Below are positions 33,823 to 54,308 of a DNA stretch of 64,000 bases, piece by piece. The notes under the pieces are model-generated. The model was not told where the DNA came from and made no database searches. It was given only the letters and a program-made list of their open reading frames with translations. Position numbers and translations under genes: made by a program. Location: assembly GCF_053078305.1 (NCBI RefSeq), contig NZ_CP166879.1. One strand, 5' to 3'. The stretch's first letter is position 1. Each line of letters begins with the position of its first letter.

Positions 33823-34473
33823 TTACCAGCCACCACCGCCTCCGCCACCCGCGCCGCCGCCAGCACCACCACCGGAATAACTTCGCCCCAACAAACTGGT
33901 ATTGGCCCCCAGACTCAGGTGCATCTGTAATGAGAACAAAACGCCACTACGGGCAATTTCCGGGGCGCTAACAGCCGCTGTGAGTGATGGGGTGATACGT
34001 GCTACCCATTCTCTTCCAAGGTTTGCTGAGACTGCCCAACCTGGCAACGCGTAATCCAGTTTCCGTGTTTCCCCTTTCCGCCGCCGCCCACTGTGTGTTG
34101 CCGCCTCTTTACGCGCAAGATAGTTAACGATAGCTTCACCGTGGGCATAACGTTGCTGCCCAGTTTGGGTAAACTTTGGCAGAAAAATATACCCCATACC
34201 AGTGAGATAACCGGTCAGGAAAACAGCGCTAAAATAACCCGCTGGCATATACCAGTAAAAGAATACATCTCCGACATTGATATAGAGAGAATAAAAGGCC
34301 ACGCCTGAACAAATCAGCGGTAAAAACAAAGTGATGATTACACGATTAACGCAAGGCTTGTCATCATCGCGGGCAAACAAAAGCTCAAGGGAGCAAAATA
34401 AAAAAGGAAGAAGCCAGCAGATCATAATAAACATATCGCCCATGTAACCAGGTAAATCATTTGATACCGACAA
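33823..34473 (-). pseudogene. yciQ: 3' remnant of membrane protein gene yciQ, truncated by prophage insertion
   Basis: 216-aa ORF with TM helices and glycine-rich C-tail in the position of yciQ (upstream of rluB in K-12) but far shorter than a full-length gene; its 5' side runs into prophage-end sequence; ORF start is a TTG, not a real start. Confidence 0.5.
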
Positions 34474-41325: not shown

Positions 41326-41859
41326 ATGATTGATGCAAAAGTGCTTGAAGGGGTTAAAAACTGGCTGAGTATTTACGGGCGTCTGACCTGCGGAGTTCTG
41401 GCTGAAAAAATGAATATGCCGCCATCCTCGATGGTTTATTTTCTGCGTGATGCGGTTGATGCCGGGGTGCTGACGGAATGTAACGGTTTTTATGATATTC
41501 CGCGTCCCCGCCCGGTGCAGCCGGTTCGTCGCAAATGCAGCCAGGAGTCTGCGGCTGATGATGTTCAGTGGTGCAGCTTCAGAAAATCCCTGCCGTGGAT
41601 TGAGGGGCATGATATTCCGTCGATGGCGTGGGAATTTGCTCAGGGCATACTGACCTGTGAAACCGTTTATGTGGTGGCTGAAGTTGATGAGCAGGCCATG
41701 AAAGAAGGCGTGCCCCAGTTTGTGATGGCGTATATCGACATACGCCTGGGTGTCATTATCTGCGGTTTAAGCGGCTGGAATATCACCTCGCGCGTTCTGC
41801 GTTACCTGATTGTTGACCGGACGGCCGCGCCTGCCGGGATATCTGCGGAGGTGGCGTAA
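41326..41859 (+). CDS. Hypothetical protein (possible N-terminal winged helix)
   Basis: 177-aa ORF, 3 bp after previous stop. Confidence 0.45.
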   Translation: MIDAKVLEGVKNWLSIYGRLTCGVLAEKMNMPPSSMVYFLRDAVDAGVLTECNGFYDIPRPRPVQPVRRKCSQESAADDVQWCSFRKSLPWIEGHDIPSMAWEFAQGILTCETVYVVAEVDEQAMKEGVPQFVMAYIDIRLGVIICGLSGWNITSRVLRYLIVDRTAAPAGISAEVA

Positions 41860-47853: not shown

Positions 47854-49517
47854 TGAGCAAAGCCAAAGAAACGTCTCCTTCACTGATGCAAATGACGCCT
47901 CCCCGCAAAATTGATCTGGCCGGTGAAAAAGCCCTGCTGGGCGTGGATGTGCCGGACAGCCTTGATTTACCCGGTGATATGCCGGTGTTTCTGGATTATC
48001 AGGCCCGCTGGTTTGAGGATGAAAGTCAGGTCTGCATCGCGGAAAAATCCCGACGCACCGGGCTGACCTGGGCGGAAGCCGGGCGTAACGTCATTACCGC
48101 CGCAAAGCCTAAGCGTCGTGGTGGCCGTAATGTGTTTTATGTGGGGTCAAAGCAGGAGATGGCGCTGGAATATATTTCTGCCTGCGCCCTGTTCTCCCGT
48201 GCCTTTAACCAGCTGGCAGATGCTGATGTGTATGAGCAGACCTTCTGGGATCGGAATAAAAAAGAAGAAATTCTGACCTACATGATCCGCTTTCCGAACA
48301 GTGGATTCAAAATTCAGGCACTGTCTTCCCGTCCGTCAAACCTGCGCGGCCTTCAGGGGGATGTGGTGATTGATGAAGCCGCGTTCCACGAGTCACTGGA
48401 TGAGCTTCTCAAGGCGGCAATGGCGCTCACCATGTGGGGCGCGCGCGTGCGTATTATCTCCACGCATAACGGCGTCGATAATCTGTTTAATCAGTACATT
48501 CAGGAAGCCCGCGAGGGGCGCAAGGATTACAGCGTCCACCGCATAACCCTGGATGATGCCATTGCGGACGGGCTGTACCGTCGTATCTGTTATGTCACCG
48601 GCCGCGAATGGTCACCGGAAAGCGAGCAGAAGTGGCGTGATGATCTCTACAAAAACGCCCCGACCCGTGAGGATGCCGACGAGGAATACGGCTGTATCCC
48701 GAAAAAATCCGGCGGTGCCTATATTCCTCACGCGCTTATTGAAATGGCGATGCTCCGCGACATCCCGATTCTGACGTTTGAAGCCCCGGACGACTTCATC
48801 AGCCGTGCCGCATGGCTGCGTGAATCGGAGGTTTTAACCTGGTGTGAAGAACATTTAAAACCGCTTTTAGAGGCGTTAAATCCCCGTTCCCGCTTCAGCT
48901 TCGGGGAAGACTTTGCCCGCACCGGTGACCTCTCCTGCTTTGTGCTGCTGGAAATCACTGAATCCCTGGCAAAACGCGAGGTGTTTCGCGTGGAGCTGCG
49001 CAACCTGCCGTATGCCCAGCAGGAGCAGGTGATGATGTACATCCTGACCCGCGTTCCGGCGCTGGTCGGTGCGGCGTTCGACGCCACCGGTAACGGCGGC
49101 TATCTGGCCGAAGCCGCGCTGCTGGCCTTTGGCCCGGACATCATCGACTGCGTGATGTTATCGCCGAAGTGGTACGGCGAGTGGATGCCAAAACTGAAGG
49201 CCGAGTTTGAGGATCAGAATATCCTCGTCGCCCGCCATCAGACCACGCTTGATGATTTGCGCCATGTGAAGGTGGTGAACGGTATCCCGCAAATCGACAA
49301 GGGGCGTACGAAGGACCAGAACGCAACGGCTGTGAACGCCCGCCGCCATGGCGATTTTGCCGTGGCGCTCTGTATGGCAAACCGGGCGTCGTACATGGAG
49401 GGCTTCATCCTGGATGAATCAGCCTGTCAGGCGCTGCCGGAGCGGTCGCGGGCCATGGAGGGCGGTTATCGTGATGACGATGAGGCATATCATGAATTTG
49501 ATCGGGGGTGCTGGTAG
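47850..49517 (+). CDS. Terminase large subunit (Mu gp28-like)
   Basis: 555 aa; ATPase and nuclease halves; position before portal. Confidence 0.8.
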   Translation: MMSKAKETSPSLMQMTPPRKIDLAGEKALLGVDVPDSLDLPGDMPVFLDYQARWFEDESQVCIAEKSRRTGLTWAEAGRNVITAAKPKRRGGRNVFYVGSKQEMALEYISACALFSRAFNQLADADVYEQTFWDRNKKEEILTYMIRFPNSGFKIQALSSRPSNLRGLQGDVVIDEAAFHESLDELLKAAMALTMWGARVRIISTHNGVDNLFNQYIQEAREGRKDYSVHRITLDDAIADGLYRRICYVTGREWSPESEQKWRDDLYKNAPTREDADEEYGCIPKKSGGAYIPHALIEMAMLRDIPILTFEAPDDFISRAAWLRESEVLTWCEEHLKPLLEALNPRSRFSFGEDFARTGDLSCFVLLEITESLAKREVFRVELRNLPYAQQEQVMMYILTRVPALVGAAFDATGNGGYLAEAALLAFGPDIIDCVMLSPKWYGEWMPKLKAEFEDQNILVARHQTTLDDLRHVKVVNGIPQIDKGRTKDQNATAVNARRHGDFAVALCMANRASYMEGFILDESACQALPERSRAMEGGYRDDDEAYHEFDRGCW

Positions 49518-51106
49518 TGGGACGTATAATTGATCTTGACGGAAAACCTTTCTCCTTTGACCCGGAGATGCAGAGTGCCGCGCTGGATATTCCGCAGATT
49601 GCCAGCCGTTATATTGAACATCCGGCCTCGGGTATCACCCCGAACCGGGCGGCGCAGTGCCTTCGCGGGGCTGAACGTGGCGATCTGATTGCCCAGTCCG
49701 ATCTGGCCGCTGACATTGAAGAAAAGGATACCCACCTTTTTGCAGAGCTGGGCAAGCGACGTCTTGCCATTCAGGGGGTGCCATGGAGTATTGAGCCGCC
49801 ACCGAACGCCAGCGCGAATGAGAAAAAGGACGCGGAAATGCTCGACGAATATCTGCATTCCGCCGACTGGTTTGATGCCATGCTGTTTGATGCCACCGAT
49901 GCCATCCTGAAGGGCTATTCCTGCATGGAGATTGAGCACGGGATGCTCGGTAAAATGCACATCATCCGCGCCATCCGCTGGCGTGACAGCGGGCATTTCT
50001 GCCTTAACCCGGATGATTTGAGCGAACTGCGGCTGCGTGACGGCAGCCATGCCGGGGTGGCGTTTCAGCCCTTTGGCTGGATAGTGCATCAGTCGCGTTC
50101 ACGCACTGGCTACGGTGGTGCGACGGGGCTTGTCAGAACGCTTATCTGGCCGTTCATTTTCAAAAACTATTCCGTGCGCGATCTGGCTGAATTTCTGGAG
50201 GTGTACGGCCTGCCGATGAAGGTCGGGAAATACCCGTCCGGGGCAACACCGGAGCAGAAAAGCGCCCTGATGCGGGCGGTGATGGATATCGGGCGACGTA
50301 CAGGCGGGATCATCCCTGCCGGGATGTCGCTGGAGTTTCAGGCAGCCGCGAACGGTCAGGCCGATCCGTTTGAAACCATGATTTCGTGGGGGGAGCGTTC
50401 CATCTCCAAAGCTATCCTCGGCGGCACGCTGACCACGGAAGCCGGAGACAAGGGCGCGCGTTCGCTGGGTGAAGTGCATAACGAGGTGCGCCGGGAAATC
50501 AGGGATTCTGATTTACGTCAGCTGGCCGCCACGCTGAACCGCGATCTGGTGTATCCGCTGTATGCCCTGAACACCGCCCACGCCATTGATATCCGTCGCC
50601 TGCCGCGTATCTGTTTCCAGACCAAAGAGCCGGGGGATATCACCAAAATCACCAGTGCGGTGATGCAGCTCAGTACGGGGATGGATATTCCAGATCCCTG
50701 GGTACGGGAGCAGACCGGTATTCCACAGCCAGCCCCCGGTGAAGCCATCTTCCGTGTCCGGCAGAGCAGTAATGAACCCGCGCAGATCAACAGGGAAACA
50801 CCGCCGGAAAAACAGGAAAAGACAGAGCAGACGGCGCTGTCAGCCCGAGTGCCGGAAGCGAAAAGCAGCCCCCGTGATGAACTGGACGACATGGGGGATG
50901 CGGTGCCTGCCCGCCGGTTACAGGAGGCCATCGACCCGCTACTGGAGCCGGTCATTGATGCCATCAGAACGCGGGGGCTGGCGGATGCGCTGGCAGACCT
51001 GCCTGCCCTTTACCGTGAAATGGATGATTCCCGCCTGATGACGCTGCTCAGTGATGCCATGTTTGCTGCGGAAATGAAGGGGATGCTGGATGGCTCAGGG
51101 GATTGA
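49508..51106 (+). CDS. Portal protein (Mu gp29 / DUF935-like)
   Basis: 532 aa; position and size. Confidence 0.8.
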   Translation: MLVVGRIIDLDGKPFSFDPEMQSAALDIPQIASRYIEHPASGITPNRAAQCLRGAERGDLIAQSDLAADIEEKDTHLFAELGKRRLAIQGVPWSIEPPPNASANEKKDAEMLDEYLHSADWFDAMLFDATDAILKGYSCMEIEHGMLGKMHIIRAIRWRDSGHFCLNPDDLSELRLRDGSHAGVAFQPFGWIVHQSRSRTGYGGATGLVRTLIWPFIFKNYSVRDLAEFLEVYGLPMKVGKYPSGATPEQKSALMRAVMDIGRRTGGIIPAGMSLEFQAAANGQADPFETMISWGERSISKAILGGTLTTEAGDKGARSLGEVHNEVRREIRDSDLRQLAATLNRDLVYPLYALNTAHAIDIRRLPRICFQTKEPGDITKITSAVMQLSTGMDIPDPWVREQTGIPQPAPGEAIFRVRQSSNEPAQINRETPPEKQEKTEQTALSARVPEAKSSPRDELDDMGDAVPARRLQEAIDPLLEPVIDAIRTRGLADALADLPALYREMDDSRLMTLLSDAMFAAEMKGMLDGSGD

Positions 51107-52415
51107 TTTAGGTTATGCCGCCACGCTTCCCTCAAAAGAGGCGGTGGCATACTTCCGCGCCAAAGGGGCGCATATCAGCTGGAACTGGTTCGAAACAGAC
51201 GCGGATGTTCATGCCCGTTCATTCACGGCGGCAAAAGTGGCACGCCTGGACGTACTGACCACACTACAGGCGGAAGTGCAGCGTGCTGTTGATGAGGGGA
51301 TTTCACAGAAAGCATTTATCCGCACACTGACACCCCGCCTGCAAAAGCTGGGATGGTGGGGAAAGCAGATTGTGGTGGACAGTGCCGGTAACGCGGAAGA
51401 AGTGCAGCTGGGCAGCCCCCGCCGTCTGGCGCTGATTTACAACGTGAACACCCGCGTGGCTTACAATGCCGGGCGTTACACGCAGATGATGAACAACACG
51501 GACACGCATCCGTTCTGGCAGTATGTAGCGGTGATGGACAGCCGCACCCGCCCGGCGCATTCCGCCCTTAACGGGCTGGTATTCCGCTATGACGATCCGT
51601 TCTGGAATACACACTACCCACCCAATGGCTGGAACTGCCGCTGCCGTGTCCGGCCATTGTCTCAGGCCCGTCTGGATGCAATGGGGTTATCCGTTTCATC
51701 CGGTCAGGATCATCTTTCCACCCGCAATGTTGAGGCTGGCGTGGATAAGCAGACCGGAGAAGTCAGAGAAATGCCGGTGACCACATATTCAGATGGCACC
51801 AGAACCATGACACCGGATGTGGGCTGGTCATATAACCCCGGTTCGGCGGCGTTCGGCACAGACCAGGCGCTGATCCGCAAGCTGATCGAAGTGAAAAGCC
51901 CGGCGTTACGGGAAATGGTGGTTCAGGAGATGAACAACAGCCCGGAGCGGCAGCTGGCGTTCCGCATCTGGGCAAAAAACATCATGAAAACCCGGCGAGG
52001 CGGTAACGATATCCGCACGCTGGGCTTTATGACCGAAAGTATTGCGCAGGCGGTGGAAAGCCGGACGGGAACGCCACCGGCCCGCCTGCTGGCGATGAGC
52101 GGTAAAAATGTGCTCCATGCGGACAGCGTGAAACATCAGAATGACGGTATCGCCCTGACGCCGGAGGATTTCGCGCAGCTTCCCGCCATGCTGGCTTCCC
52201 CCGATGCCGTGCTGTGGGATCATGTCCATCAGAACCTGCTTTACATCACTGAAACCCGTGACGGAACGGCAAAGATTGCCGTCAATGCGCCTTATGGTGT
52301 GAAGCGCCAGCCGGATAAGCTGGATGTGGTAATTAATGCTTACCGGGTAAATAAATTTGATATTGAAAAAGCAATAGAGGGCGGAAAGCTGGAACTACTG
52401 GAAGGTAAATTGTAA
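51090..52415 (+). CDS. Head morphogenesis protein (Mu F / gp30-like)
   Basis: 441 aa; follows portal. Confidence 0.75.
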   Translation: MAQGIDLGYAATLPSKEAVAYFRAKGAHISWNWFETDADVHARSFTAAKVARLDVLTTLQAEVQRAVDEGISQKAFIRTLTPRLQKLGWWGKQIVVDSAGNAEEVQLGSPRRLALIYNVNTRVAYNAGRYTQMMNNTDTHPFWQYVAVMDSRTRPAHSALNGLVFRYDDPFWNTHYPPNGWNCRCRVRPLSQARLDAMGLSVSSGQDHLSTRNVEAGVDKQTGEVREMPVTTYSDGTRTMTPDVGWSYNPGSAAFGTDQALIRKLIEVKSPALREMVVQEMNNSPERQLAFRIWAKNIMKTRRGGNDIRTLGFMTESIAQAVESRTGTPPARLLAMSGKNVLHADSVKHQNDGIALTPEDFAQLPAMLASPDAVLWDHVHQNLLYITETRDGTAKIAVNAPYGVKRQPDKLDVVINAYRVNKFDIEKAIEGGKLELLEGKL

Positions 52416-52417
52416 GC

Positions 52418-52500
52418 CGGTGACGGGGGTCGAACCCGCATAAACATATGACCCCTGAGGGTTTATGCCGCTTTACCAGTTAAGAGTACACCGGCCTGTA
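52418..52500 (-). other. tRNA-like structured element (acceptor stem and T-arm signature only)
   Basis: Minus strand reads GCCGGTG...GCGGGTTCGACCCCCGT-CACCGGC: a 7-bp acceptor-like stem and a T-arm with TTCGA loop; D and anticodon arms do not fold canonically; coordinates approximate. Confidence 0.25.
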
Positions 52501-52533
52501 TTTATTTTAATCAGATAGTTTTAAGGAGGCAAC

Positions 52534-53007
52534 ATGTCATCCATCGATGCAGCCGTGGTGGTGGACGTTGCGCGTCTCCAGCGGGTCTTTGCCCGGCTTC
52601 AGTTTGTGGGTGGTGGAAAAGACCTGGCCCGCAGTGTGGCGGCGAGTCTTCTGTCATCGTCAGAAATGGCGTTTGAACAGGAAAAAGAGCCGGACGGCGA
52701 ACGCTGGCATGACTGGTCAGATCCTTACCGCAAGTGGCGTACCCGTAAGGGATACATGCCCGGCAAAATCCTGACGCTGAACGGCGATCTGGCCCGACGC
52801 CTGACCACGGATTATGGCGACACCTGGGCGCTGATTGGATCAAATGAGCCTTATGCGGCCATTCATCAGTGGGGTGGCCTGCCCGGTATGCCACCGGGAC
52901 CGGCGGCCATTGGTGCACGTCCGTATATGGGCTTTGATCAGGTGGCAGAGCAGGAGATCATGGACGAAATCAGAAAACGCTTTAAAAAGGCCACAGAAAC
53001 GCCTTAA
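52534..53007 (+). CDS. Virion morphogenesis protein (Mu G / gp31-like)
   Basis: 157 aa; position after F. Confidence 0.65.
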   Translation: MSSIDAAVVVDVARLQRVFARLQFVGGGKDLARSVAASLLSSSEMAFEQEKEPDGERWHDWSDPYRKWRTRKGYMPGKILTLNGDLARRLTTDYGDTWALIGSNEPYAAIHQWGGLPGMPPGPAAIGARPYMGFDQVAEQEIMDEIRKRFKKATETP

Positions 53008-53183
53008 TTGTTTAAGGTATGCAAATGCATTACCTTACCCCCTTCAGGCGCGTGTCGTGATTTTCTAACCTGTATTTAACGGGCTTTAAAATCTGCGTGA
53101 AGCGCCTTTGTATTTTTCCCCTGGAAGCACTTCCTGAAATCCCGCAAAACCCGCCCTGAAAATTCCCGGCTTATGCTGCCGGA

Positions 53184-54308
53184 ATGAAGACGAAAAACAC
53201 GCCCAAACTTGCTTATGCCATTCTGAATGCCATCAGCCTGTCCGCAGACGGGGACGGTGACTGGTGTCAGATCATGCCAGCCGGTCGGGTAAAGGCCCGT
53301 GACGGTCGCCCGGAAAAACCGGCTGAAGGCTGGCTGATTAACCGTGCGACCGTTGAGCGCATGGTATCCCGGGTTGTGGCGCTCAATCAGCCGGTAAAAA
53401 TTGACTACAACCACCAGACCCTGATTAAGGGGCATCAGGCACCGGCTGCCGGTTTTGTGATGGCCTCACCGGAGAATTTTCGCTTCAGTGAAGAGCGTGG
53501 CTTCGAGGTGCGCCCGAAGTGGAATCCTCCGGCCCTTGAACATCTGCGTAATAACGAATTCCCCTGGTTTTCACCGGTGATTGGCTATGACGAGAGCACC
53601 GGCGAACCTGTCGAACTTCGGATGCTGGCTATTACCGGTGACCCCGGTCTGACCGGCATGAATCCTGTCGCCGCGCTGTCGGCGGATGACCTTTATAACG
53701 CCTTAAACCCTCCTTTAAAGGATACCTCCATGAATGAGCAATTACGCCAGTTGCTGACGGCGCTCGGTCTGACCGTGGCTGACGGTGACGAATTTACGCC
53801 GGAGCTGGGCACGGCAGCGCTGTCTGCCCTCACCGGGATCAAAACCCGTGCGGATGCACACGACAACCTGAAAACACAGGTTGCCAGCCTGTCGGCAGAG
53901 CTGGAAACCGCAAAAGGCACACCGGCTGGCGGCAGTATTGATCTGACGAAATACGTGCCTGTTGAAACGTATAACGCCCTGCGTACCGAATACGTTGCGC
54001 TGTCGGCGCAGCACGGCAGCACCACGCTGGAGCAGGTGCTGGACAAGGCTGAATCCGAAGGGCGCATCTTCAAAAGCGAACGCGGCTATCTGGAACAACT
54101 GGGCGGGCAGATTGGCGTGGCGGCACTTTCTGCACAGCTTGACGCCCGCCAGCCGGTTGCGGCCCTGACCGGCCTTCAGACCGACACCGTGACCGTGCCG
54201 GATAAAAAGACTGCCACCGCTGTGCTGTCGGCTGAAGATATCGCGGCCGCCAAACTGCTGGGTAAAACCGAAGCCGAGTTCCTGAAAATGAAAGAGGAAA
54301 TGCAATAA
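53184..54308 (+). CDS. Prohead protease/scaffold protein (Mu I / gp32-like)
   Basis: 374 aa; N-terminal protease-like domain, C-terminal alanine-rich helical scaffold-like region; directly precedes major capsid gene. Confidence 0.7.
   Translation: MKTKNTPKLAYAILNAISLSADGDGDWCQIMPAGRVKARDGRPEKPAEGWLINRATVERMVSRVVALNQPVKIDYNHQTLIKGHQAPAAGFVMASPENFRFSEERGFEVRPKWNPPALEHLRNNEFPWFSPVIGYDESTGEPVELRMLAITGDPGLTGMNPVAALSADDLYNALNPPLKDTSMNEQLRQLLTALGLTVADGDEFTPELGTAALSALTGIKTRADAHDNLKTQVASLSAELETAKGTPAGGSIDLTKYVPVETYNALRTEYVALSAQHGSTTLEQVLDKAESEGRIFKSERGYLEQLGGQIGVAALSAQLDARQPVAALTGLQTDTVTVPDKKTATAVLSAEDIAAAKLLGKTEAEFLKMKEEMQ

Follow-up and report, generated by a model that had tools for sequence, protein, structure and literature searches.

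A probable non-decoding tRNA-like RNA gene antisense to the F-G head-gene junction of Mu-like prophages

Introduction

tRNA genes carried by phages are usually explained by codon usage and, lately, by escape from tRNA-cleaving defence systems. Some RNAs of mobile elements have tRNA-like features and act in other ways. C4 of phages P1 and P7 and CI of the satellite P4 are tRNA-like antisense RNAs that serve as RNase P substrates and are expressed in lysogens. They possess an acceptor-like terminal helix and variable specificity loops on a conserved scaffold, and are complementary to known targets; to our knowledge, they have no D/T elbow. The tRNA-like module of YrlA, the tRNA-like RNAs of murine gammaherpesvirus 68 and mascRNA are non-decoding RNAs in which the elbow is kept and read by tRNA enzymes and the anticodon region is absent or shortened. 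The topology of YrlA is reversed, with the RNA ends at the 'anticodon' side and the acceptor closed by a loop, and CCA is added to the herpesvirus RNAs and mascRNA, which are eukaryotic. We know of none of these RNAs within a phage head operon. Phages also carry morons, which are independent transcription units inserted between conserved late genes.

Among annotated bacterial genes, tRNA-Other of Bacillus cereus is described as a predicted pseudo-tRNA with no role in translation and with a regulatory effect (PMC3399842). Non-canonical tRNAs with 8/4 or 9/3 acceptor/T branches keep the 12-bp branch (PMC5389517). In this study, we analyzed a structured element lying between two head genes of a Mu-like prophage in Escherichia coli, which very probably represents a functional, non-decoding tRNA-like RNA gene.

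Results

Genomic context of the element

The window, a stretch of 64,000 nucleotides from contig NZ_CP166879.1 (assembly GCF_053078305.1), is part of an E. coli O157:H7 chromosome, and the element sits in the head-gene block of a Mu-like prophage (Table 1). The gap of 118 bp between genes F and G houses it and is filled exactly by the RNA gene, as the -35 hexamer of the latter lies within the start region of G, flanked by the Shine-Dalgarno sequence and the start codon, and the 3' end of the RNA gene overlaps the stop codon of F. Positions 52300-52650 are 100% identical to strain Z1835 (NZ_CP062700.1), in which PGAP annotated the identical sequence as tRNA-OTHER. Copies of the element in RefSeq either bear this label or are unannotated, and no description of it was found in the literature searched. 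The automatic label is the sole existing one, and the family is apparently undescribed. At least one copy is present in 228 of 5,426 complete E. coli genomes (~4%), many of which belong to O157:H7 or other Shiga-toxin-producing strains.

Table 1. Features of the F-G junction and its surroundings (positions of the window)
Feature	Position	Strand	Evidence or remark
Portal gene	49508-51106		Pfam Portal_Mu
Gene F, minor head protein	51090-52415	+	Pfam Phage_Mu_F and MuF_C; PGAP 'phage minor head protein'
Mosaic block (last ~20 F codons, 3' half of RNA gene, middle arm)	52320-52470
Stop codon of F	52413-52415		Overlapped by the RNA gene's extended acceptor helix (opposite strand)
Likely full RNA with extended acceptor helix, ~84 nt	52414-52497	-	Predicted ends
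Core tRNA-like RNA, positions +1 to 73, 81 nt	52415-52495	-	Rfam tRNA match; model R1
Acceptor stem, 3' strand CACCGGC	52416-52422	-	Perfect 7-bp pairing with 52489-52495
T arm GCGGG-UUCGACC-CCCGU, G49·U65 wobble	52423-52439	-	Enclosed by acceptor stem
Closed hairpin GCAUA-A-ACCC-(UCAG)-GGGU-CA-UAUGU replacing the anticodon arm	52444-52468	-	Arm fold
D arm, UCUU/AAGC stem, loop AACUGGUA with G18 G19	52470-52485	-	Infernal alignment to tRNA model
Acceptor stem, 5' strand GCCGGUG	52489-52495	-	Perfect 7-bp pairing with 52416-52422
Predicted sigma-70-type promoter: -35 TTGCCT (52532-52527), 17-nt spacer, -10 TAAAAT (52509-52504)	52504-52532	-
Ribosome-binding site of G, AAGGAGG	52523-52529
Gene G, virion morphogenesis	52534-53007	+	Pfam Phage_tail_S; PGAP annotation
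Protease I gene	53184-54308		Same prophage head-gene block

tRNA-like body

The region 52300-52620 was scanned with cmscan against Rfam at E-values up to 10. The tRNA model (RF00005) matched the element over its full length with 31.4 bits, above the gathering score of 29 (E = 6.6e-5), and its alignment places a 15-nt 'anticodon loop' in the element, compared with 7 nt in tRNA. Apart from a Vibrio TarA hit at 52349-52395 that is due to chance, scoring 14 bits where the threshold is 80, no other Rfam family, including P1 C4 / P4 CI, tmRNA and Y RNA-like, was matched in this region. A family covariance model, R1, gave 89.6 bits for the element (E = 3.5e-20) and detected a single copy within the window. 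ARAGORN made no tRNA call in the whole window or in ten related loci scanned.

On the minus strand, the RNA reads GCCGGUG-UAC-UCUU-AACUGGUA-AAGC-G up to the middle arm and UUAU-GCGGG-UUCGACC-CCCGU-CACCGGC-U after it. The perfect 7-bp acceptor-like stem and the T arm with a TTCGA loop inside it, both described in an earlier note on this DNA, are present. The same note saw no D arm, which is not correct: a UCUU/AAGC stem closes a loop containing G18 G19 and covaries in relatives. This stem has one U·C mismatch, and a single extra C lies between U8-A9 and the stem. The elements of a cloverleaf (7-bp acceptor, D and T arms) can all be recognized, with stems that are 94-99.6% paired and covarying, and the nucleotides responsible for the L-shape, including R15:Y48, are in place. 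In alignments of 13 and 15 sequences, the elbow columns U8, A14, G18 G19, U54 U55 C56, A58 and G53:C61 are invariant; U48 is invariant in the former and nearly so in the latter. These alignments show or strongly imply that the RNA retains the tRNA-elbow nucleotides U8, A14, G18 G19, U54 U55 C56 and A58, as well as A15 with U48.

The folding energy of the minus strand is unremarkable (z = -0.86), and the plus strand folds slightly better (z = -2.46). The case beyond chance is thus made by the covariance-model score, the covariation across relatives and the conservation of the flanking promoter, and not by thermodynamic stability.

Middle arm and acceptor end

As the earlier note had observed, a canonical anticodon arm is absent; its place is taken by a bulged hairpin closed by a UCAG tetraloop, with no anticodon loop. 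The 5-bp anticodon stem with a 7-nt loop (U33, purine 37) that marks a tRNA is not found in the element. The long CAUAAAC/GUUUAUG hairpin proposed in that note can indeed pair, in the sequence class of the window only; a reading that suits the whole family better consists of GCAUA/UAUGU and ACCC-UCAG-GGGU, after which 4 nt (UUAU) are single-stranded. A capped, well-formed middle arm occurs in all 47 distinct members of the family. Its apical loop is a tetraloop in 30 members (UUCG in at least 10), a triloop in 6 and longer, with 5-18 nt, in the remaining ones, and a 7-nt loop was observed in none of the 47. The length of the arm ranges from ~14 to 36 nt, its sequence is highly variable, and at least seven unrelated versions exist within E. 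coli-type loci alone. In close relatives of the window's class, the stems are constant and the tetraloop drifts (UCAG, UCAA, UCCG, UUCG, UAAC), so that the cap behaves as unconstrained. For one satellite copy, PGAP reports 'tRNA-Tyr'; this call is based on the GUAC tetraloop of a perfect palindrome, which is no anticodon loop, and was rejected.

Targets of the arm were sought in the window. A search with up to 3 mismatches returned the element's own locus only, and 10- and 11-mer matches to the arm occur at chance level. Complements of the class III arm loop were likewise at chance level in the loci carrying it, the satellite, the window and prophage CP55.

The acceptor helix extends two pairs past the 7-bp stem, G-1·U73 (52496/52415) and A-2:U74 (52497/52414). 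The 'discriminator' 73 is paired with -1 in 43 of 47 members (17 G:C, 13 A:U, 9 U:A and 4 G·U), leaving the acceptor end without a free discriminator, and the next pair, -2:74, is formed in 34 of 47 distinct members. CCA is not encoded, and the trailer reads UUACAAU; an unpaired discriminator followed by CCA is thus lacking in the encoded sequence. In the E. coli-type loci, subtracting 6 from the distance to the -10 hexamer gives the count of extra pairs, in most cases to within one: spacings of 7, 8, 9, 10 and 14 nt go with 1, 2, 4, 4 and 7 extra pairs, with one exception (L067). Such tracking suggests a primary transcript that begins with the first base of the helix. The rule fails in some distant loci, such as L089, L085 and L106, where 4-5 unpaired leader nucleotides are predicted. 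Given these exceptions, we take the pairing of the discriminator as established and only infer that the RNA is never processed. RNase P processing, as well as CCA addition after trimming, may occur.

Distribution and covariation of the family

To collect relatives, covariance model R1 was run on 126 loci fetched with a G-protein profile, and scanning viral and metagenomic contigs for exact patterns added more variants. With a gapped DNA pattern matched exactly, there were no hits in species-representative genomes and 22 loci in viral contigs; host names were obtained by a G-protein search followed by the covariance model. Three loci matching the DNA pattern (L056, L058 and L062, with acceptor GCCCCAG) lie in an unrelated low-GC phage context without F or G and were excluded. 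The resulting family has 47 distinct members in phages and satellites. Nearly all of them are antisense between F and G of Mu-like prophages from Enterobacterales and Alteromonadales, and a few are located in satellite arrays. Named hosts include Citrobacter braakii, Edwardsiella anguillarum, Alishewanella jeotgali and a Shewanella species. All non-satellite members with checkable flanks lie just upstream of G on the opposite strand, and the antisense position is constant in Mu-like loci, with one end at the F stop codon and the other ~25 nt before the Shine-Dalgarno sequence of G. As judged from these searches, members occur only in Mu-like phages and in what are likely their satellites.

Conservation of the RNA extends far beyond close relatives. 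In other E. coli Mu-like prophages (some of which are inserted in Stx phages), the F-G gap is ~78% identical overall and keeps the acceptor, D and T arms via compensatory changes, and the element is still present where G and F are only ~41% and ~34% identical to the proteins of the window. Most relatives score below the Rfam tRNA threshold in the larger search. In a set of 15 diverse members, standard pairs fill 99.6% of the cells in the acceptor, D and T stems, and seven stem pairs change on both sides, five of which belong to the seven acceptor pairs. None of 500 shuffles of this set matched the observed pairing and covariation, and sliding the partners by 1-3 columns reduces pairing to 33-59%. 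The 13-sequence set agrees with this result. In the T arm, 100% of cells are paired and pair 50:64 covaries from C-G to U-A; the D stem covaries as GCUC/GAGU in L003c, GAAU/AUUC in L097-L100 and GAUU/AAUC in L162. RNAalifold recovered the acceptor and T arms unaided.

With a tRNA covariance-model match above the gathering score and stems that are conserved and covary in other Mu-like prophages, the element is upheld. Of the identities put forward in the earlier note, a tRNA-like processing or regulatory RNA agrees best with the evidence, which indicates a minus-strand gene, conserved and covarying, for an RNA shaped like a tRNA and with a predicted promoter of its own. A degenerate tRNA in the sense of a decaying pseudogene does not agree, since the body and the tertiary nucleotides are kept where G is ~41% identical and the arm is capped in every distinct member.

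Promoter and transcribed strand

The predicted sigma-70-type promoter upstream of the RNA (TTGCCT-17-TAAAAT) is the sole promoter-like site in 49000-53500 and ends 8 nt before +1. According to this prediction, transcription should start at 52497 or 52496, 1-2 nt ahead of the acceptor stem. Nearly all Mu-like loci have a -10-like hexamer (TAAAAT, TATACT or TATAAT) at 6-14 nt before +1, which is retained although the surrounding bases differ between loci. Downstream of the RNA gene, the minus strand has no T-run, and no intrinsic terminator was detected there.

The acceptor and T stems of 48 distinct sequences contain 520 Watson-Crick, 28 G·U and 4 A·C pairs. Because a G·U pair on the minus strand corresponds to a C·A mismatch on the plus strand, this bias implies that the minus-strand RNA, rather than the late mRNA, is under selection. 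It also speaks, together with the missing T-run, against a structured late-promoter or terminator region, as the earlier note had alternatively suggested.

Accessory status, mosaic exchange and satellite arrays

In phage Mu, F and G overlap by ATGA, leaving no intergenic space and no element. F also abuts G in the relatives L082, L086, L091, L094, L161 and L164, which have no element; in several relatives, one of them with a G that is 65% identical, the F stop directly adjoins the ribosome-binding site of G. Since Mu and several relatives do without it, the element is a gain-and-loss accessory of ~120 bp outside core morphogenesis. It shows the insertion between genes adjacent in relatives and the patchy presence that are typical of morons; as to transcription signals, a conserved promoter-like site was seen and an intrinsic terminator was not found downstream. 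On these comparative grounds, the element is an accessory insertion ('moron') in one lineage of Mu-like transposable prophages.

Comparison with prophage CP55 shows that the surrounding 3 kb are 94% identical and that identity drops to 43-72% at 52320-52390 (the end of F) and to 55-60% at 52431-52470 (the arm). From locus to locus, the 10-12 variable residues at the end of F change together with the arm class, and the tail helix ends in a shared GGK-LE-LLEG motif. We read the F tail and the arm as one mosaic block, probably exchanged by recombination between conserved flanks. No cognate preference was observed in the duplex energies of the arm with the 3' trailer (-19.1 vs -17.9 kcal/mol) or with the F-tail mRNA (-20.7 vs -21.3 kcal/mol), and the F tails are acidic; both points favour physical linkage over interaction. 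Part of the 'hypervariability' of the arm may be old allelic divergence, given its linkage to the variable F tail. The F tail was also considered as a polymorphic toxin with the RNA as its immunity factor, a notion that was rejected because the variable part amounts to only ~10-12 residues of a homologous helix.

On one metagenomic contig, the unit of F tail, RNA gene and G start is duplicated in tandem.

Copies of the RNA gene also occur in an E. coli satellite island of ~8 kb, which encodes an integrase, ash, Icd-like proteins, a RepA helicase, SSB, PerC and a Mor activator, and which is located in mdtP or beside a tRNA-Ile gene. The island terminates in an array of 2-3 tandem RNA genes in sense orientation that overlap no gene, and the three-copy array consists of one of each arm class from E. 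coli Mu-like prophages. Action in trans is plausible for these copies, which are antisense to nothing there. A Mu-like helper phage has been reported for an island of a similar kind in Pasteurella (PMC6092414). No tRNA-related enzyme that might serve as a partner is annotated within the prophage.

Discussion

The element is very probably a functional, non-decoding tRNA-like RNA gene. A genuine decoding tRNA was rejected on the grounds of the negative ARAGORN results and the missing anticodon loop; with no free discriminator and CCA either, the encoded sequence argues against both aminoacylation and decoding on the ribosome. The tRNA body is under strong selection, the anticodon has been discarded and the discriminator is paired, so the selected property must be the shape of a tRNA.

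From structural and evolutionary findings on the family that we regard as solid, we infer the following function. The RNA would be transcribed from its own minus-strand sigma-70-type promoter, without dependence on late transcription, both in the prophage and early during infection. It would be stable, its two ends being enclosed in a helix, and would be neither charged with an amino acid nor used in translation. It would act through its tRNA shape by binding or titrating a factor of the host or of a rival element that recognizes the tRNA body, reading the acceptor/T helix and the elbow and not the anticodon. A tRNA-directed nuclease, a modifying toxin and a processing enzyme are candidates for such a factor, and the RNA would be a decoy in phage-host or phage-satellite conflict. 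A decoy or titrator is favoured by the patchy presence, the constitutive-type promoter and the sharing with satellites. Taken as a mechanism by itself, decoy action is a tentative proposal; the blended account, a non-decoding tRNA mimic gene that acts as a decoy, is the best explanation that we can offer, and we lean towards it with modest confidence. The confinement to Mu-like phages and the constant site fit a role in Mu-like biology at least as well as a general decoy.

A related and somewhat doubtful possibility is that the RNA serves as a weapon or shield. Here, a decoy with a paired acceptor would be directed at a tRNA-recognizing immune nuclease or toxin, or against a rival phage or satellite, and the cassette of arm and F tail would be under diversifying selection. 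If this were true, satellites would carry each arm class so as to cover or counter all variants of the helper.

An antisense regulator of the late head operon appears unlikely, and it is the main alternative. According to this reading, a duplex at the F-G junction would be cut by RNase III, alter the F:G ratio or silence leaky transcripts in lysogens, and satellite copies would act in trans on the F-G junction of the helper, with the variable arm setting specificity. The RNA is perfectly complementary to the late mRNA at the junction, its exact position and orientation are constant in every Mu-like locus, its promoter overlaps the start region of G, and the satellite has one copy for each of the three arm classes of E. 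coli Mu-like prophages. Hypervariable apical regions on a conserved scaffold also typify the specificity determinants of antisense RNAs such as plasmid copy-control RNAs. However, antisense pairing leaves the conserved elbow nucleotides and the L-shape unexplained, as it does the sense-oriented satellite copies. The loops at the end of most arms, of 3-4 nt and often UUCG, are ill suited to kissing interactions; cognate pairs were not favoured in the pairing energies, and the search for trans targets in the window and related loci gave nothing beyond chance. Moreover, related phages thrive without the element, and Mu overlaps F and G.

A natural tRNA scaffold is a quite improbable alternative, in which the body would provide stability or processing and the variable hairpin would be active as a small protein-binding decoy, for example as a CRISPR-repeat mimic. 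The arm is swapped like a cassette between phages otherwise 94-98% identical and exists in at least seven unrelated versions in E. coli-type loci, and satellite arrays mix different arms. In one pair of loci with flanks ~90% alike (L026 and L036), the 10-nt apical loops share 3 of 10 bases. By eye, the class II arms (CUGCC...GGUGG and CAGCCU-GUAC-AGGCUG) resemble what we take to be the type I-F repeat hairpin, and the class I arm contains AUAAACC, which presumably corresponds to the type I-E 5' handle in 7 of its 8 nt. Nevertheless, classes I, II, IV and V keep the stem only and their tetraloops drift, as expected for an unconstrained cap and not for a recognition site, and arm length spans ~14 to 36 nt. 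The likenesses to CRISPR repeats are short and were drawn by eye, and the arms concerned change bases known to be read by Cas6f.

That the locus matters as DNA, being a recombination or integration site or a hotspot of cassette exchange to which the RNA is irrelevant, is very improbable. In favour of this, tRNA genes are well known as integration sites, the middle of the element varies between two conserved halves, and both cassette exchange and a tandem duplication were seen; yet compensatory changes, the one-strand G·U bias and the conserved promoter point to selection on a transcribed RNA, and no copy is interrupted by an integrated element. A decaying or functionless tRNA pseudogene, or a plus-strand structure of the late mRNA such as a terminator or processing site, is hardly credible and already appears largely refuted by the covariation, arm and G·U data, since the borderline tRNA score (31.4 against 29, with most relatives below the Rfam threshold) and the slightly better plus-strand fold (z = -2.46) have to be set against deep conservation with covarying stems, an arm well formed in 47 of 47 members in contrast to random decay, a G·U to A·C ratio of 28:4 that favours the minus strand, and the lack of a T-run for a terminator.

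The partner of the proposed tRNA mimic, once found, could reveal a new layer of phage-host or phage-satellite interaction acting via tRNA mimicry. As its arm tolerates inserts of 14-36 nt, the element is, in addition, a counterpart in nature to the 'tRNA scaffold' of RNA engineering.

The family may be likened to other non-decoding tRNA mimics, namely tRNA-Other, the YrlA module, the herpesvirus RNAs, C4 and CI. With canonical tRNA (RF00005), it shares the 7-bp acceptor, the D arm with G18 G19, the T arm with UUCGA, U8 and A14, a variable region of 4-6 nt and an overall length of 71-92 nt; it differs in having no 7-nt loop or anticodon, an extra nucleotide after A9, a paired discriminator and no encoded CCA. 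An acceptor helix of more than 7 bp (8-9 bp in the element) is shared with the 8/4 and 9/3 tRNAs (PMC5389517), tRNA-His and tRNA-Sec, but those keep the anticodon and a free CCA end; with its 5-bp T stem, the element has a branch of 13-14 bp, compared with 12 bp in the 8/4 and 9/3 tRNAs. Like phage morons, it comprises ~120 bp with a predicted promoter of its own, is patchy in distribution and lies between genes that overlap in Mu, whereas its product is an RNA instead of a protein and no terminator was found. The RNA anti-CRISPRs are solitary CRISPR-repeat mimics that closely resemble a repeat of the host in sequence and structure (PMC10651486), and the likenesses of the element to CRISPR repeats are short and were seen by eye. 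The B. cereus tRNA-Other (PMC3399842) is also a tRNA-shaped gene product linked to a mobile island, but its sequence and host are unrelated, and the capped arm and paired discriminator are features of the prophage family. With regard to cis-antisense regulation, the RNA gene and the F-G junction of the late operon do overlap, and the satellite copies overlap no gene. With C4 and CI, the element shares a terminal helix and the plan of a scaffold with variable loops, and it differs from them in that no target was found for it and in the possession of a D/T elbow.

Setting of the tRNA-like RNA gene

The Mu-like prophage that carries the tRNA-like RNA gene is itself an insertion in a lambdoid prophage, where it splits a gene annotated as "phage head completion protein" adjoining HK97-type head genes; comparable Mu-like insertions are annotated within Stx1a and Stx2c phages. 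On one side of the RNA gene, the variable end of the minor head protein F comprises its last 10-12 residues, beyond the motif NAYRV. These residues differ sharply among otherwise near-identical phages, and the variable tail goes together with the class of the RNA-gene arm (the capped hairpin in the anticodon-arm place). On the other side, a gap of 176 bp separates G from the protease gene I. Because the phage Mu record has a gyrase cut site annotated directly after G, this gap may, by analogy, hold an equivalent strong gyrase site.

Coordinates of features in the window and in the loci fetched for comparison
Feature	Sequence	Position
Lambdoid host prophage	window	~34100-34450 and leftwards
F codons ~411-441	window	52320-52400
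G-I gap	window	53008-53183
fdhF SECIS element	L003	2468-2522
Island array	L003 (= L035)	3778-4078 (= 41444-41640)
Island array	L040	9031-9227
Island array	L044	1132-1433
Island array	L045
Island array	L060
Duplicated unit	L048	1180-1660
Three tandem copies	L099	1128-1434
Arm-complement match	L026	13533-13542

Arrays in a satellite-like island

In E. coli, tandem arrays of two to three tRNA-like genes were also detected at one end of an island of ~8 kb, with spacers of ~23 nt that have U6 at their end. The island encodes an integrase, ash, two Icd-like proteins, DUF4222, RepA helicase, SSB, PerC and a Mor activator, and appears to be a satellite of Mu-like phages. It lies within mdtP in one strain and adjoins a tRNA-Ile gene in another, and the array query was matched over at least 80% in 13 complete E. 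coli genomes. An Rfam match in one array-bearing locus (87 bits) is the expected SECIS element of host fdhF and has no relation to the tRNA-like family.

Possible tRNA ancestry

Apparently genuine tRNA genes were found in large viral contigs (L008, L009, L012, L017, L022-L025); judged by eye, they seem to include one type II tRNA-Leu(CAA) and one Ile(UAU)-like tRNA. Since the T-arm and acceptor junction UAUGYGGGUUCGACCCCCRYCAC is exactly common to these genes and the tRNA-like family, they hint that the mimic may have arisen from this lineage of phage tRNAs. The complement of the loop and stem in L026's class III arm (CAGTGTTGAT) is matched once, over 10 nt; chance alone would give ~0.3 matches of this kind, so the hit is probably meaningless.

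Multiple copies in Mu-like loci

In a more distant Mu-like phage (L099; G 42% identical), three divergent tRNA-like copies, scoring 28, 19 and 16 bits with the covariance model, lie in tandem upstream of G. Another locus, L048, carries a tandem duplication of a unit comprising the C-terminal tail of F, the tRNA-like gene, the promoter and the first ~17 codons of G, in which the arm of the second copy differs. This duplication shows that recombination is active at the F-G spot, and it is reminiscent of polymorphic loci with their displaced "orphan" cassettes.
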